A DNA stretch of 64,000 nucleotides from Candidatus Omnitrophota bacterium. Its GTDB lineage: Bacteria; Omnitrophota; Gorgyraeia; Zapsychrales; Fredricksoniimonadaceae. The position numbers were made by a program. Each line of letters starts with the position of its first letter. Positions within the stretch are counted from its first letter, which is position 1. The stretch covers positions 9,676 through 73,675 of the forward strand of contig CAIVRE010000024.1 of assembly GCA_903908245.1 (NCBI GenBank). The letters are read 5' to 3'. Positions 30,001-36,000 of the stretch are shown in pieces.

Positions 30001-33000
30001 ATCATTATGCCAATATCTGATGCCTAAAGTTTTCGTCAAACCCAACGACAAGAAGCGGCAGTACAGCCGGGTTCAGCACCTCAGCGCGATCGAGACGCCG
30101 GTATGGCTTTCGTTCATGTCCAAAGCGCAGGAGGACAGTATTATTGTCGATATGGAGGCCGAGGGCCTAGACGAGAAGGGGCTTGTATTGCGGTTGAAGG
30201 ATGTTTCTGTTGATGAGGTGGTATTGCTTGCGACCGGCTCTCATCCGTCCGCGCATATTCAGCAGTCGGAAGCGGCCGATCGTCTTAAGAAGGGGGTTGA
30301 GGCGATCTTTGATGTGCCGGTGCGCGTTGAGAACCGGCTGTTCTTCGATCCGACCGCGATGGGGGCCATTCCCTACGAAAAATTGCGCCTGCCGCTTTAC
30401 CGGGCGCACAATTGGCATTCCTGGGGGAGGCCGGACCGGTCTTATGGGGCCACCTTTTCCAGCATTTCCTGCCCGTTCAAATGTGATTTCTGTTGTGTCA
30501 AGGATTTCTACCGTTCCGATTACCGCCGGCGTGATCCCCGGCTTGTGCTGGAAGATATCAAGGCGCTGGTGTCGAGCGGAGTGACCAATATCAAGATGAT
30601 GGATGAGCTTTTTGCCCTGGAGCATAAGGGGACGCGCGAGGTTTGTGAGCTCCTGAGGGCGGAAGGCCTGGGGGAGGTCGTTAATATCTGGGCGTATGCC
30701 CGGATCGATACCGTGAGTGAGGATCTGCTGAAAGTGCTGCGCCGGGCGGGGGTGCGCTGGCTGGCTTACGGCATTGAGTCGGGGAATGAGGCGATCCGTG
30801 CCGGGGCGATGAAGGGCAAGTTTACCAATGACCATGTCAGGTCGGTCATTCAAATGACCAAGGACGCGGATATCAGTATTGTCGGAAATTATATGTTTGG
30901 TTTTTGGGATGATACTTTTGAGACTATGAGAGAAACGCTTGATCTGGCCAAGAATCTTAATTGTGAGTATTCGAATTTTTATTGCATGAGCGTTTATCCC
31001 GGGAGCCGTCTTTATGATGAAATGAAGGCCCGTGGAGTGGATCTGCCGCTTACCAGTGAAGAGTTCGCGCAGATGAGCCCCAATTTCAAGCCTGTGCCCA
31101 CCAAGGCTTTGAGCGGGCGTGAAGTGATGGCGTTCCGCGATGCCGCTTTCAGTGAATATTTCTGTGATCCGGGGTATTTGTCGATGATGGGGGGGCGCTT
31201 TGGAAGCCACGCGGTTGAAGAGATCAAAGCCATGACCAGTATCGAGATACGTTGATGTTCTCTAAGCTGCTGATCGCCGTCATTGTTTTTAGTATTTGCG
31301 TATCTTGCGGAATAAGGATCGCTTCCCAAAAGCTTTTATGGAATGACGAGCTTTTTACCCAGGTGGAAACGATTGACCGTCTGGGTTATTCGGATATCGG
31401 GCGGGCAAAGTTCCCGGAAGGGAATTTAAGCCCGTTGTTCTATCTCGGGCAGAAATTCATTTGCCGTTGGACGGACTATCGCCTGCCGGTCCAATGGAAC
31501 GGTGAGTTTTGCATTTATGAGCCTCGCGGGCAGGTGTTATTGCGGATACTTCCGGTGGCCTGTATGTCGCTGGCGGTGGCTTTGATCTTTTTATATTTTG
31601 CCTGCCGTGTTTCTATCCCGGCCGGGTTCCTTGGCCTCGCGGTGACGCTGTCGGGGTTCAGCGTCTGGGCGTTCATGCCGGAAGCCAGGCCGTACAGTTT
31701 ATGGTTTTTGTTGTGTTCCCTGCAAGCGATGCTTTTCATGGAGATCCTGGATGGCCGGAATGCCCGGAAGTTCTGGCCGTGGGTCCTTATGGCGCTGGTG
31801 AATGTGCTGCTTTCATTGACGATCTTTTTCTCAGCGATCCCTATTATTGCCGTGTCGGCTGTTCTTTTCTTCGGGCAGTGGGGCAGGTATATGCGTAACT
31901 GTATTTTTGTAACGGTGATCCCGCTGGCGGGATGTGTGTTGTATTATCTTTTGGCCAAGCGGACGTATTCAAATTTGTCCGAGGATCCGGCCAGTGTTCT
32001 TCGGATGTTGAAAAGCGGGGCTGTTCTTTTTTTCTCAGGCGGGATCTTCGCGCAGAGAGACTTGATCCTGACCAATATCCCGCCGTTCTGGGGCTATTTC
32101 CTGGGTGTCGGTTCTTGTATTGTCGGATGGTTGTCCCTATCCAAAAGAGGGGCGGATGTTCTTGCGGGGTTTAAAGGGTTTTTCTCAGCGCTTGTCATGA
32201 TGCTTGTGATGGTATGCGCGGTCATTATATGGTTCTTCGGCTGGAGGGCGAGCGGGAATTTTGGCATAGCAGAGAGATATTTTATTTTTTTAACGCCGTT
32301 TGCCATCTTTCTGATCATGTCCCTCGTTCGGGTCTTATGGAGTTTTGCGAAAGAGGACGGCTTGTACCGGCTGATGGTGGTTGTCGGTATGGGTTCAATG
32401 ATCGCGTTAACATCATTATGGACGCATATCCATTTAATGAAATGGGGGCCGTTTTGGTCGCTGTAAGGGATTCCCTTCGGGTATCTGTGATCAAAGCGGT
32501 GGTTTTTCTGATCATTGTTTTGGGCGTAGCGTTCGCCTGGGGAATGCTTTGGCAGGATTACCCCAGGGCGAGGGAAGGCCTTTTCTCCCGGCGGATCGAC
32601 AGTTATCTTCCGGATCTGGCGGCTCTTCGGCCGGAACTGCTGCGCAGCAGCAAGGAGGGGGACAGGTATCTGGCGTATTATCACCTGATCGAGCGGGAAG
32701 CTCCCGGGACGGCCGGCGTGAATGAAGCGCTTGGCTATTGTTATTATTATTCCGGTGATAGCCACCGGGCGGTCAGATATTTTGAACAGGCGTTAAGGTC
32801 TACTCCGGATTCTTTTATTGCCCGTTATAATCTCGGGGTTATTTATTATCAGAAGAAAGATTTTGAACGGGCGCTGGGTTATTTTCAGCAGGCCGTCAGT
32901 CTGCCTGAGAGCCGGGTTTTCAGTTACGGGATCGGGTCCAAGGTGTTTTCCCAGTTCAGGGTGGTGCGAAAGGTCACTTCCGTTGAGGCTCTGGTGAGAT

Positions 33001-36000
33001 TGCGCCGGGAATACGATGACGCGAAGCGTTTTATCAAGGTTTGTATGGAGAAACAGGGCAAGGCCGGGGAGCTTCTGATACTGGCCATGAGGTATAATGA
33101 CCTGCGTCAGGCCTGGACGCAGTACGGCGGTGAGCCGTCAACCATGGAACTGATTGTTTTCTAAAAGCGAGAGTGACCAATGATCATTTCAAGGACGCCT
33201 TTCCGTATTTCGTTCTTCGGCGGCGGGACAGATTATCCGGCGTGGTTCAAGGACAGCCCGGGTGCGGTTTTGGCGACTTCGATCGACAAGTATTGCTATT
33301 TGACGGTGCGTTACCTGCCTCCATTCTTTGAGCATCGTTCAAGGATCATTTATTCCAAGATGGAGCATGTGCAGGGGGTCGATGAGATCGATCACCCGTC
33401 AGTGCGGGAGACATTGCGTTTCATGAACGTCCATGAGGGGATCGAAGTCCATCATGACGGCGACCTTCCGGCCCGTACGGGCCTTGGGTCGAGTTCGGCA
33501 TTCACGGTCGGCCTGTTGAATGTCCTTTACGCGCTCAAAGGCGTGATGACGACCAAACAGCAGCTGGCGGAGCAGGCCATTCATATCGAACAGAATTTGA
33601 TCAAAGAGAACGTCGGGTCCCAGGATCAGGCGCTGGCGGCTTATGGCGGGTTCAATCATATCGAGTTTCTCAATGACGGGCATTTGAATGTGCGTCAGCT
33701 GACATTGTCGGGCGAGCGCATGAGGAATTTGCAGAATCACATGATGTTGTTCTTTACCGGATTTTCCCGCACCGCCTCTCAGATCGCGGCGCATCAGATC
33801 CAGAATATCCCCAACCGTCGCAGGGAACTTGCGACGATGTATGGTTTTGTGCAGGAGGCGTTAAAGTGTCTGAACGATAATGATCTAAAAGGTTTCGGGG
33901 TCCTGCTCAATGAAAGCTGGAAGCTCAAGCGTACGCTTTCCGACAAGATCACGACGGATGTTATCGACGATATTTACGCCCGGGCCATGAAGGCCGGAGC
34001 GTTGGGGGGGAAATTGCTGGGCGCGGGCGGCGGCGGGTTCGTTCTGATCTATGCGGAGCCCGATCAAAAGCCTGCCGTTCGGCAGGCCCTGAGCGGTTTT
34101 CTCGAGATCCCTTTTAAGTTTGAAGGGCTTGGCAGTCAGATCATTTTTTATCAGCCCAATAGCGGGGTGGTGGCATGAATGCGGATTTTTGTGTATTGTG
34201 CGGAGGTTTAGGGACGCGCCTTCGTTCGGTGACGGGAGATACGCCCAAAGTCATGGCGGAGGTCCAGGGAGAGCCTTTCCTGGATTTTCTGATCCGTTAT
34301 CTGATCCGGCAGGGGGCCCGGCGGGTGATATTATGTGCCGGATATAAAGGTGAGTCGCTGGCCGGGCATTACAGGAATAAATTCAAGGAGATCGATGTGC
34401 AGATGTCGATCGAGCGCGAGCCTCTGGGGACGGGGGGCGCGTTCAAAAATGCTCAAAGCCTTGTTAAGAGTGATACGGTTTTTGGCTTGAACGGAGATTG
34501 TTTTACGCCGGTCCCTTACGCGCAGATGCTGGGGGCATACCAGAAGAAGTCTGCGCTTATTACCCTGGCGGGCGTGCGGGTGGAGGGCAATAAGGATTTC
34601 GGCACAATTGTCATGAATGAAAAAGATGAGGTTCTTGAGTTCAAGGAAAAGTTCGCAACAAGCGAGGTCCAGTATATCAGTGCGGGGATCTATTGTTTCC
34701 AACGGAAACTTTTTGATATGATGCCTGAGGGAAAATTTTCCATTGAATACGACCTTTTCCCGCAATTGATTGGGAAACGGTTTTTCGGGTTCAAGGTGGA
34801 CGCACCGTTCATTGATATCGGGACGCCGGAGCGGTTTGAATGGGCGAAGAAGCATTTGAAGGAGATGTTGCAATGAAGATCCAGGCGGGACAGGAATCAA
34901 AAAAATCGGGGTATAAAGTTCCTTTTGGAACGGTGTCCATCACGGATAAAGCGCGCAAGCTTATTGATGCGGCGCTGGAGTCCAAGTGGGTCACCAAAGG
35001 CAAATATGTCAAAGAGTTCGAGGAGAAATTCGCGGCGCTGTTCGGCGTGAAATACGGCGTGGCGGTTTCCAGCGGTACGGATGCCGATGCGTTGGCGTGC
35101 GCTGCGCTTTATGATTTCGGCGCGCGGCGCGGGGATGAAGTGATCATTCCGGCCCTGTCGTTCGTGGCTACCGGCAATGCCGTTTTTCAGGCGGGGTTTA
35201 CTCCGGTGTTCGTGGATGTGAAACGCACCACGCTTAATATTGATCCCGACAAGATCGAAGCGAAGATCACGCCCCTTACCAGGGCTATTATGCCGGTGCA
35301 TTTGATGGGAAAGCCGGCCGAGATGGATAAGATCTGCGCGATCGCGCAAAAACATAATCTTAAGATCATTGAGGACGCGGCCGAGGCGCATGGCGCGGAG
35401 TACCGCGGACAAAAGATCGGTTCGATCGGGGACATGGCATGTTTCAGCCTTTATGCCGCGCATATCGTGACGACCATTGAGGGCGGGATCATTATCACGG
35501 ATTCCGAAAAGACAGCGGAGGCCCTGCGGAGCCTGCGCAATCACGGGATGACGGGGAAGTTCACCTTCGAGCGTATCGGTTTTTCGGCCAAAATGAACGA
35601 GATCGAAGCGGCCGTCGGCTTGGGGAATATTGATATCTTTCAGCATATCCTTGATACGCGCCGGCGGAATATGCTTTATCTGATCGACAAGTTCGCCCGT
35701 TTTGACAAGGTTTTTATTACGATGAAAGAAGAGCCTCATGAAAGGCTCGGGCCGCATGCGTTTTCTATTATTCTGCGTGAGGGATTAAAGTTCACCAAAG
35801 ATGAATTTGTGGCGTATATTGAGTCGAAGGGCGTGGATTCGCGCAACCTGTTTTATTCGATGCCGACCCAGTGCCCCAGTTATTCCTTTTTGGGGCATAA
35901 GCTGGGGGATTTTCCGGAAGCGGAATATTGCAGTGATCATGGGACGCATATCGGCATCCATCAGGATATCGAGGTTAGCCAGCTGGATTATGTGGTCGAG

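Follow-up and report, generated by a model that had tools for sequence, protein, structure and literature searches.

In the window analyzed here (a stretch of 64,000 nucleotides from an uncultivated Omnitrophota bacterium), we identified two overlapping genes, memA and TPR-A, that probably encode a two-subunit transferase, in which a GT-C membrane enzyme works with a periplasmic TPR partner by the mechanism proposed below. The pair represents a known enzyme design divided into two pieces, which some of its relatives have in one protein. The first-pass annotation had read this region as a split GT-C/TPR module, a reading that is supported as an architecture. The genes and their overlap are as follows:

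30020..31255, plus strand: radical-SAM gene, the end of which is coupled to the start of memA (context rather than a core part)
31252 (TTG) or 31255 (ATG)..32466, plus strand: memA, 403 to 404 amino acids (aa), approximately 11 transmembrane (TM) helices and no soluble domain
32418..32466, plus strand: stretch in which the end of memA and the beginning of TPR-A overlap in different frames; 49 nt if TPR-A starts at ATG 32418, 25 nt if it starts at ATG 32442
ATG 32442 (240 aa) or ATG 32418 (248 aa)..33164, plus strand: TPR-A, a small TPR protein

The ATG at 31255, which is the memA start in public assemblies of the same organism (a 403-aa gene), is likely to be the true start; it overlaps the stop codon of the upstream radical-SAM gene (TGATG). 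MemA had no sequence match in Pfam (searched to an E value of 0.1), NCBIfam, or the PDB, and no precomputed Pfam domain was present on any of its 33 homologs. Its AF2 model (pLDDT 93.4, pTM 0.93) gave a uniform result in a Foldseek search of the PDB, with GT-C enzymes at all of ranks 1 to 22 (probability, 0.96 to 1.0). The best match was Pmt4 (E value, 1.8e-4; TMq, 0.59), followed by AftA, STT3, ALG9, AglB, ArnT, Emb, and PglB, of which AftA, ArnT, and ALG9 scored about equally to Pmt4. Profile-profile alignment (hhalign) also related memA to PMT_2 (PF13231; GT39/GT83-like, ArnT/PMT clan), at 97.7% and an E value of 2.3e-12 over residues 27 to 176 (i.e., the catalytic N-terminal third), and passed through the W-DE, PL(F)Y (PLFY), and EARPY motifs. 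Compared with PMT_2 proteins, memA is approximately 150 to 200 aa shorter, lacks the soluble C-terminal domain, and falls below every Pfam threshold. The helix positions in the AF2 model and the charge bias (positive-inside rule) fit 11 TM helices with the N terminus inside and the C terminus outside. Three motifs stand out in this framework:

31336..31350, plus strand: LWNDE, memA residues 29 to 33, matching the W-DE motif of PMT_2 proteins
31681..31704, plus strand: EARPYSLW, residues 144 to 151, in the short TM3-TM4 loop on the periplasmic side
32272..32298, plus strand: ERYFIFLTP, residues 341 to 349, in the predicted periplasmic loop after TM9

The acidic pair D32-E33 (31345-31350) directly follows TM1, where the first periplasmic loop begins. 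All aligned homologs (30/30) retain it, and it is presumably the catalytic or metal site. R146 and Y148 of the second motif, the PMT_2 profile counterpart of which is QEARpYSLW, are invariant as well, and R342 and Y343 of the third are nearly so. The GT-C fold and this invariant pair bear out the earlier description of a polytopic protein with an ArnT/PMT-like DE loop. A different kind of polytopic envelope protein (i.e., a polymerase, ligase, flippase, or transporter) would fit the absence of a curated family match and of the soluble domain that ArnT and PglB typically have. Such an identity is nevertheless very improbable, given that non-GT-C folds begin only at Foldseek rank 23 (TM-scores of ~0.15), that the invariant acidic pair occupies the canonical GT-C position, that profile homology links memA to PMT_2, and that a GT2-memA (i.e., GT2-GT-C) fusion exists (P0161). 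As modeled, memA is a minimal GT-C-fold glycosyltransferase belonging to an Omnitrophota family for which no model exists, and it would use a polyprenyl-phosphate-linked sugar donor.

The overlap between memA and TPR-A, already reported in the first-pass annotation, implies translational coupling and is also present in orthologous loci (L001, L002, L006, and L010). The N-terminal hydrophobic segment of TPR-A (residues ~16 to 38 by hydropathy) agrees with the membrane anchor described earlier; it could alternatively be a cleaved signal peptide with a possible AFA site. Pfam models TPR_2, TPR_16, and TPR_1 match residues 95 to 155 (E values of 1e-13 to 1e-12), OGT-type TPRs align to residues 55 to 210, and approximately four TPRs are present. 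Orthologs of TPR-A were found only in Omnitrophota. The protein ends in a short tail that is common to the partner-TPR family:

33147..33161, plus strand: ELIVF-COOH, the hydrophobic C-terminal tail of TPR-A with an aromatic last residue

Phe or Tyr is the last residue in 38 of 47 TPR open reading frames (ORFs) versus 16% of background ORFs.

We surveyed 54 nonredundant related loci, almost all from Omnitrophota, which contained 66 memA-family members. A TPR gene directly adjoins 29 of these members (15 upstream, 13 downstream, and 1 on both sides). Two further arrangements link memA to GT2s: the P0161 fusion and the gene order GT2-TPR-memA in L005, L054, and L055. The search for fused GT-C-TPR homologs proposed in the first-pass annotation was positive: 2 of the 66 members are natural fusions (L014/P0104, 579 aa; L020/P0159, 585 aa), which belong to different clades of the memA family and have the GT-C part at residues 1 to 367 and the TPR part at residues ~391 to 560, with no added TM helix. 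TPR genes are co-conserved with GT-C genes across Omnitrophota; a lack of such co-conservation in other genomes had been named in the first-pass annotation as part of its contrary case. Among unfused TPR ORFs, 39/45 abut a GT-C-like gene (binomial P of ~1e-14 under a generous null), and the adjacency is therefore beyond chance. TPR proteins are plentiful in Omnitrophota genomes, and no TPR gene adjoins approximately half of the memA family (i.e., solo genes and the clades with tandem memA-memA genes), so that the TPR is not universally required; both points could suggest that the TPR gene is simply a common neighbor in TPR-rich genomes. This reading is barely credible beside the enrichment, the overlapping GT-C/TPR reading frames in many lineages, the two independent fusions, and the absence of the family tail from TPR ORFs that lack a GT-C neighbor; the fusions and the enrichment effectively refute it.

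The topology of the TPR tree is broadly that of the GT-C tree, with TPR clades following the clades of their partners, and members of one TPR family are paired with polytopic proteins of three unrelated families (memA, memB, and memX). The latter observation would be more in keeping with a generic adaptor than with a reader specific for the acceptor, and the TPR protein might then act as a scaffold or stabilizer, keeping the GT-C enzyme in a larger envelope assembly complex (e.g., with Wzy/WaaL-like or Lpt components) or shielding it from proteolysis, with the aromatic tail as a docking element. TPR proteins do serve as scaffolds in numerous bacterial machines for polysaccharides and pili, weak generic matches to PilW, FlcA, and PrsT were obtained, and the conserved F/Y tail resembles a docking peptide. 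However, the tail is kept in the fused proteins, where docking to the GT-C part is needless, the tracking of partner clades suggests a partner-specific rather than a generic function, and a Pfam census of 129 neighboring ORFs yielded no third conserved partner gene. We consider a purely scaffolding role unlikely.

In its architecture, the memA/TPR-A pair resembles TMTC1-4 (CAZy GT105) and TMEM260, which are eukaryotic endoplasmic reticulum protein O-mannosyltransferases (PMC7801869, PMC10214176). With the topology predicted for memA and TPR-A, the pair would share with them an 11-TM GT-C core whose N terminus is cytoplasmic and a noncytoplasmic TPR after the last TM helix. Other common features are an acidic residue in the first lumenal/periplasmic loop and a juxtamembrane helix between TM7 and TM8; the fused layout is matched exactly by two memA relatives (L014/P0104 and L020). 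Unlike in these enzymes, the TPR here is a separate, self-anchored, and much shorter polypeptide (approximately four repeats) in a different reading frame, the sugar would come from an undecaprenyl-linked instead of a dolichyl-linked donor, and its acceptor is possibly a glycan. The label "TMTC-like" in the first-pass annotation thus holds for the architecture and not for the family, because memA matched neither DUF1736 (the TM7-TM8 loop) nor PMT_2 in Pfam and, judged by its sequence, is not a member of GT105. A bacterial counterpart is TfpW, the pilin D-arabinofuranosyl transferase of Pseudomonas aeruginosa Pa5196/PA7, which is described as a GT-C enzyme that is predicted to have 11 TM helices; its core is ArnT-like, one of its periplasmic loops carries an acidic motif, and a TPR domain forms its periplasmic C terminus (bioRxiv 10.1101/2020.04.19.049825). 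TfpW differs from the present pair in being one fused protein whose gene lies beside its substrate gene, pilA, whereas the window has no pilin-like gene.

The first-pass annotation had also proposed that the arrangement recurs at 58791-63159. The recurrent part consists of the following genes:

58051..58794, plus strand: GT2 of the polyprenyl-phosphate-sugar synthase type, which runs into the start of memB (Pfam Glycos_transf_2, 1.9e-24)
58791..60983, plus strand: memB, 730 aa, a YfhO-like GT-C glycosyltransferase
60962 (ATG, preceded by GGAG)..61639, plus strand: TPR-B, 225 aa, anchored at the N terminus and ending in a KELFF tail

TPR-B overlaps the memB 3' end by 22 nt and is a paralog of TPR-A (37% identity over 70 aa; E value, 1e-12), in agreement with that proposal; the gene at 61675-63159 lies outside the conserved module, since it is absent from the closest relative. 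The membrane protein of this second copy comes from a different GT-C family. The AF2 model of memB (pLDDT 73, pTM 0.78) retrieved only GT-C enzymes at Foldseek ranks 1 to 26, and the protein has invariant residues at D45 and in an LWD69PF motif, as well as a periplasmic beta-rich domain (residues ~560 to 692) followed by a C-terminal TM helix. Its match to YfhO (PF09586) is weak, at 17.7 bits versus a cutoff of 28.5 and confined to the C-terminal end, and 13 of 20 memB homologs have a precomputed PF09586 match. No kinship between memA and memB was found (hhalign was not significant), and the two are not paralogs of each other, with memA being PMT_2 related and memB YfhO-like. Orthologous memB-TPR pairs occur in L069, L068, L012, L020, L039, and L046, and the order GT2-memB-TPR is kept in L069 and L046. 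The closest solved relatives of the GT2 in the PDB are GtrB sll0501 (1e-15), ArnC (1e-13), and DPMS (9e-13), and it presumably makes the lipid-linked donor for the second copy. TPR-A and TPR-B both score far below the NCBIfam cutoffs for PrsT of the PEP-CTERM type (37.5 versus 312 bits) and for BcsC (12 versus 858), and they are also far below the cutoffs of the remaining named NCBIfam TPR families. The first-pass annotation stands in this respect, because the TPR genes match neither of the two families, PEP-CTERM and BcsC, that it had named as a possible contrary grouping.

Such gene sets recall the systems GtrA/GtrB/GtrC, CsbB-GtcA-YfhO, and ArnC-ArnE/F-ArnT, in which a GT2 loads a sugar onto Und-P and a GT-C enzyme (YfhO, PMT_2, or an unmodeled type) transfers it outside the membrane (PMC8035078, PMC11127046). 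The GT2 at 58051 and memB fit this scheme directly, and GT2s of this kind are linked or fused to memA-family members in other loci. In contrast to memA/TPR-A and memB/TPR-B, these systems have no dedicated TPR subunit; two further differences are that the first copy lacks an adjacent GT2, as is the case throughout this window's clade, and that no GtrA-type flippase was found in the window, where the only small multi-TM ORFs are an SxtJ-like ORF (48767-49162) and an unassigned ORF at 63636. Genes for flippases can be located at other sites (PMC8035078).

We propose that a GT2 of the GtrB/ArnC/DPM1 type would make a polyprenyl-phosphate-sugar on the cytoplasmic face, which would then be flipped; memA would take the sugar from the flipped lipid and, via the D32-E33 loop, attach it to an acceptor on the outer side of the inner membrane. 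TPR-A, cotranslated from the overlapping gene and held in the membrane by its N-terminal anchor, would place its approximately four TPRs in the periplasm and join memA in a physical complex, providing in trans what TMTC1-4, TMEM260, and TfpW carry as a C-terminal domain. It would there bind or position the acceptor, which is how the TPR partner may select a protein or glycan, as the first-pass annotation suggested. MemB and TPR-B would form a second such unit, comprising a YfhO-type GT-C enzyme with its own GT2.

The pair is housed in an LPS-type sugar cluster both here (~40 kb) and in the closest relatives of this genome. The genes around memA encode an HddA-like kinase, a nucleotidyltransferase, DegT aminotransferases, an MsbA-like ABC exporter, GT4 and GT9 enzymes, LptD, and an O-antigen-ligase-like protein. 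There is roughly an even chance that the acceptor here is an LPS-core/O-chain-type envelope glycan from this surrounding 40-kb cluster. Characterized three-component systems with YfhO or PMT_2 decorate glycopolymers (PMC8035078, PMC11127046). The only characterized GT-C-TPR enzymes, namely, TMTC, TMEM260, and TfpW, all modify proteins (PMC7801869; PMC10214176; bioRxiv 10.1101/2020.04.19.049825), an observation that runs against a glycan acceptor.

The same two-subunit machine may instead be a bacterial protein O-glycosyltransferase analogous to these three enzymes, a possibility that we hold tentatively; its TPR groove would capture unfolded or specific envelope proteins (e.g., pilins, adhesins, or giant Omnitrophota surface proteins). 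Besides the precedent of the characterized enzymes, TPR-A matches the peptide-binding TPR of OGT best among natural proteins, and the top structural match of memA, Pmt4, is a protein O-mannosyltransferase, although the matches to AftA, ArnT, and ALG9 are about as good. Most other genomes have the GT-C/TPR module among housekeeping genes rather than glycan clusters, as expected of a general protein-modifying enzyme, whereas the LPS-type cluster around the pair here and in its closest relatives argues against a protein, as does the YfhO character of memB, since known YfhO members modify teichoic acids (PMC8035078). A protein substrate is further disfavored by the absence of a prepilin motif of the G-F-T/S-L-I-E type from every frame of the window and of any conserved protein-substrate gene beside the module across 31 loci. 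The census of 129 neighboring ORFs yielded no conserved acceptor candidate of either the protein or the glycan kind. The radical-SAM gene upstream of memA is not present in L001 or L002 and is kept in L006, L010, L011, and L067. The same window also contains a bona fide PMT_2 gene:

4-1578: PMT_2 gene

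The membrane protein gene memA and the small TPR gene that follows it, TPR-A, belong to a run of envelope-sugar genes, nearly all on the plus strand:

31252-32466, plus strand: memA open reading frame, 404 codons, TTG start
32418 or 32442 (ATG) to 33164, plus strand: TPR-A reading frame

Public assemblies from the same organism start memA at an ATG at position 31255, which shares bases with the TGA of the radical-SAM gene before it. memA and TPR-A are read in different frames and have 49 or 25 nt in common, depending on the TPR-A start. No match for memA was found in Pfam, NCBIfam, or the PDB with either the single sequence or a 30-sequence profile, and none of its 33 word-index homologues carried a Pfam domain; the fold was therefore established via structure prediction. 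In a Foldseek search of the PDB, the AlphaFold2 model built on the homologue alignment (pLDDT 93.4, pTM 0.93) matched only GT-C enzymes at ranks 1 to 22 (probability 0.96 to 1.0), including Pmt4 (the top match), AftA, STT3, ALG9, AglB, ArnT, EmbA/B, and PglB, and the ranks below these were unrelated transporters with TM-scores of ~0.15. Profile comparison (hhalign) with the window's own PMT_2 gene (positions 4-1578) gave 97.7% probability and an E value of 2.3e-12, with paired motifs (i.e., PLFY with PLYF and EARPYSLW with QEARpYSLW). The ArnT/PMT-like DE loop described for memA in the first-pass annotation was correct: D32 and E33, in an LWNDE motif just past TM1, are invariant and align with W-DE of PMT_2. 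Other invariant residues are P61, F63, Y64, and Q67 (EGNxSPLFYLxQK), R98, and R146 and Y148 (EARPYSLW), and an RYFIFLTP motif is also conserved. Thus, memA is a minimal GT-C without a soluble domain and a distant relative of the PMT_2/ArnT clan.

memA falls outside GT105 and under the PMT_2 threshold and is therefore a member of an unmodelled GT-C family. This family has ~284 representatives (E ≤ 1e-30) in a library clustered at 50% identity, is essentially restricted to Omnitrophota, and is covered by no Pfam or NCBIfam model. The best memA match in the word-index search had 64 to 65% identity; this search was incomplete, missing the exact memA protein itself (a 403-aa gene called in public assemblies of this organism, L066 and L067), and absence from it does not mean absence from the collection. 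Helix positions and the positive-inside rule predict 11 TM helices with the N terminus inside and the C terminus outside, and the model places a putative juxtamembrane helix in the periplasmic TM7-TM8 loop. This predicted topology is the layout reported for the TMTCs, TMEM260, and TfpW (PMC7801869, PMC10214176, bioRxiv 10.1101/2020.04.19.049825).

Scanning GTDB with a single genome for each species yielded 57 related loci, nearly all from Candidatus Omnitrophota MAGs and some labelled "uncultured Planctomycetales." Orthologous loci (39 to 65% identity) retain the overlap of the memA and TPR genes and share the order epimerase-(rSAM)-memA-TPR-GHMP kinase-nucleotidyltransferase-DegT-ABC exporter-GT9. 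Local HMM searches of 54 non-redundant loci (from the species scan and contig look-ups) identified 66 memA-family ORFs.

TPR context of the 66 memA-family ORFs
Small TPR ORF immediately upstream on the same strand: 15/66
Small TPR ORF immediately downstream on the same strand: 13/66
TPR ORFs flanking both sides: 1/66
TPR domain fused: 2/66
Tandem memA-memA pairs without TPR: 21/66
No TPR neighbour: 14/66 (7 of the 14 at contig edges)

Conversely, 39 of 45 unfused TPR ORFs at these loci adjoin a GT-C-like gene (memA or the polytopic genes memB or memX described below; p ~1e-14 under a generous null). The first-pass annotation, which had proposed a split TMTC-like module at 31252-33164, recommended a search for fused GT-C-TPR homologues, and this search recovered natural fusions in L014 (P0104 of the protein library; 579 aa) and L020 (585 aa; called in truncated form as P0159). 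In both, the GT-C part spans residues 1 to 367 and the TPR part residues ~391 to 560, with no additional TM helix between them. The fusions thus retain the last TM helix of memA and add none, which places the TPR part on the side of the memA C terminus, and we infer that this side is the periplasm. They sit in different memA clades and are thus apparently independent events. In rough neighbour-joining trees, the TPR-linked and tandem forms of memA fall mostly in separate clades, and the TPR tree broadly mirrors that of the partners. The tandem arrangement without TPR was seen in L003, L015, L017, L021, L022, L033, L035, L036, L038, and L057, with a 466-aa GT2-methyltransferase fusion before the pair and a convergent memX-like gene after it in about half of these loci.

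Thirteen Pfam TPR models match TPR-A at E ≤ 1.5e-5 each, the best being TPR_2 (1.7e-13) and TPR_16 (2.6e-13) at residues 95 to 155, and the OGT TPR superhelix aligns with residues 55 to 210 (about four repeats). Scores against the named NCBIfam TPR families (FlcA, PilW, PrsT, MamA, BcsC, and others) were far under the cut-offs, so the similarity of TPR-A is to generic TPRs; on the same scores, membership of the window TPR proteins in the PrsT, BcsC, PilW, or FlcA families was ruled out. Ten full-length relatives of TPR-A (225 to 248 aa) were found, all in Omnitrophota. Its single hydrophobic segment (residues ~16 to 38) could be a signal-anchor; a cleavable signal, with a possible AFA site, is less likely. 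Across the window and loci L001 to L056, TPR proteins partnered with a GT-C share a conserved hydrophobic C-terminal tail with an aromatic last residue, as in TPR-A and TPR-B (the TPR partner of memB):

33147-33161, plus strand: TPR-A tail, ELIVF
61622-61636, plus strand: TPR-B tail, KELFF

F or Y is the last residue in 38 of 47 TPR ORFs versus 16% of background ORFs. Both fusions retain this tail, which is missing in four of six TPR ORFs without a GT-C neighbour. The tail may serve for docking, or it may mimic an OMP beta-signal or a PDZ ligand.

The module had also been annotated as recurring at 58791-63159, which proved accurate for memB (58791-60983) and TPR-B (60962-61639) and not for the remainder. 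TPR-B, a paralogue of TPR-A (37% identity across the TPR core), shares 22 nt with memB. The YfhO match of memB is weak and limited to the C-terminal part; PF09586 was detected in 13 of 20 memB homologues. The top 26 structural matches of the memB model (pLDDT 73, pTM 0.78) were GT-C enzymes only. Pairs of memB and TPR were seen again in L012, L020, L027, L039, L046, L068, and L069, with the order PriA-Fmt-memY-GT2-memB-TPR-CBS in L069, the closest relative. A paralogous relationship between memA and memB was ruled out, with no significant similarity by BLAST or hhalign; hhalign likewise revealed none between memA and the other polytopic ORFs memC, memX, and memY. Because no sequence homology between memA and memB could be detected, the paralogous TPR partners serve different GT-C families.

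The ORF past TPR-B, memC (61675-63159, 494 aa), is missing from the L069 gene order and so lies outside the conserved unit; it was rejected as part of the second module. It is polytopic, had no family match and no homologue in any fetched locus, and is probably a lineage-specific insertion, judging from its absence in L069. Two further polytopic ORFs were noted. memX (27666-29042, 458 aa) has no Pfam or NCBIfam match, recurs near memA in many loci, and has its own adjacent small TPR gene in L005, L013, and L054; its hhalign match to memB is weak (15%), and it may represent a third GT-C-like family with TPR partners. memY (56550-58061, 503 aa) has no Pfam match and is conserved in L069 directly before GT2-memB; its weak hhalign profile match to PMT_2 (35%, E 4e-4) may mark it as a further GT-C.

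In many loci of the wider memA family, GT2 genes lie immediately upstream, including the order GT2-TPR-memA in L005, L054, and L055, and the 466-aa GT2-methyltransferase gene precedes tandem memA pairs. The closest solved relatives of the GT2 directly before memB are the Und-P/Dol-P sugar synthases GtrB, ArnC, and DPMS. P0161 (608 aa) is a natural fusion of a GT2 (residues 7 to 172) with a memA-type GT-C (residues 239 to 602) and thus provides a Rosetta-stone link between the GT-C and its presumed Und-P-sugar synthase. This linkage fits the multi-component scheme of a GT-A enzyme, a flippase, and a GT-C (PMC8035078, PMC11127046). No GtrA-type flippase gene was found in the window, where the candidate small ORF is an SxtJ-like one; a flippase gene of this type often lies elsewhere and is shared (PMC8035078).

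The memA/TPR-A cluster includes an HddA-like kinase, a nucleotidyltransferase, DegT aminotransferases, an MsbA-like exporter, GT4, GT2, and GT9 transferases, methyl- and carbamoyltransferases, LptD, and an O-antigen-ligase-like gene. This sugar-cluster setting, together with the known YfhO and PMT_2 systems, which decorate glycopolymers (PMC8035078, PMC11127046), points to a glycan acceptor, to which we give an even chance. A protein acceptor is possible, if somewhat doubtful: every characterised GT-C enzyme with a TPR domain modifies proteins (PMC7801869, PMC10214176, bioRxiv 10.1101/2020.04.19.049825), and Pmt4 is the top structural match of memA. An acceptor of some other or unidentified class appears quite improbable. 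The window contains no prepilin motif that would mark a pilin substrate gene of the tfpW-pilA kind, and no conserved acceptor or extra partner was found among 129 unlabelled neighbour ORFs from 31 TPR-linked loci, most of which are housekeeping genes (e.g., NAD synthase, glutamine synthetase, and haem synthesis), with no family in more than 4 of the 129. Both results argue against an adjacent substrate.

The architecture of memA/TPR-A is that of TMTC, TMEM260, and TfpW, and the pair most likely works biochemically like Gtr/Arn/YfhO-type systems. To our knowledge, GT-C enzymes with TPR domains (TMTC1-4, TMEM260, and TfpW) are known only as fusions. What is new is the split form, with a dedicated family of self-anchored TPR subunits partnering several GT-C types; a literature search of incomplete coverage found no description of a split GT-C with a separate TPR subunit. 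The occurrence of split and fused forms in one family, with partner-specific TPR clades, provides a tractable system for asking, by subunit swaps, whether the TPR sets the acceptor. With these genes, a capacity for envelope glycosylation also enters the annotation of this uncultivated phylum, with a practical impact that is modest until the acceptor is identified. A more far-reaching scenario, which we regard as unlikely when taken as a whole, is that Omnitrophota share a phylum-wide system with multiple paralogues, in which small, dedicated TPR proteins, anchored in the membrane and ending in the conserved aromatic tail, would recognise acceptors as detachable subunits of three or more unrelated polytopic transferase families (memA, the YfhO-like memB, and memX). 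Such a system would constitute a modular "reader plus GT-C" toolkit glycosylating surface proteins or glycans with a part in the host-attached lifestyle of these nanobacteria, and it would also represent a prokaryotic stage that preceded the fused TMTC/TMEM260-type enzymes.

Several other features of the window were recorded. After the bona fide PMT_2 GT-C gene (4-1578), the region 4-7262 continues with four radical-SAM genes (one SPASM-type and one B12-binding) and a DegT aminotransferase. Six radical-SAM enzymes in all, including those encoded at 30020 and 39817, occur in the sugar clusters of the window, a possible sign of unusual sugar modifications. At 25596-26749, a split thiamine-dependent E1/transketolase-like pair (E1_dh of 205 aa and an unassigned ORF of 210 aa) lies between sugar epimerases, is kept with memX and memA in L001, L002, and L006, and may act in branched- or keto-sugar chemistry. 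A carbamoyltransferase gene (46942-48765) is directly followed by the SxtJ-like ORF (48767-49162; 3 to 4 TM helices; PF19588, E 6e-8). Such a pairing is known from saxitoxin clusters, and here it lies in a glycan locus. At 7262-10152, an LPG_synthase_TM (flippase-like) gene on the plus strand converges with two others, a GT2 gene and a Wzy_C/O-antigen-ligase-like gene, which are the only minus-strand genes among the ~56 in the window.
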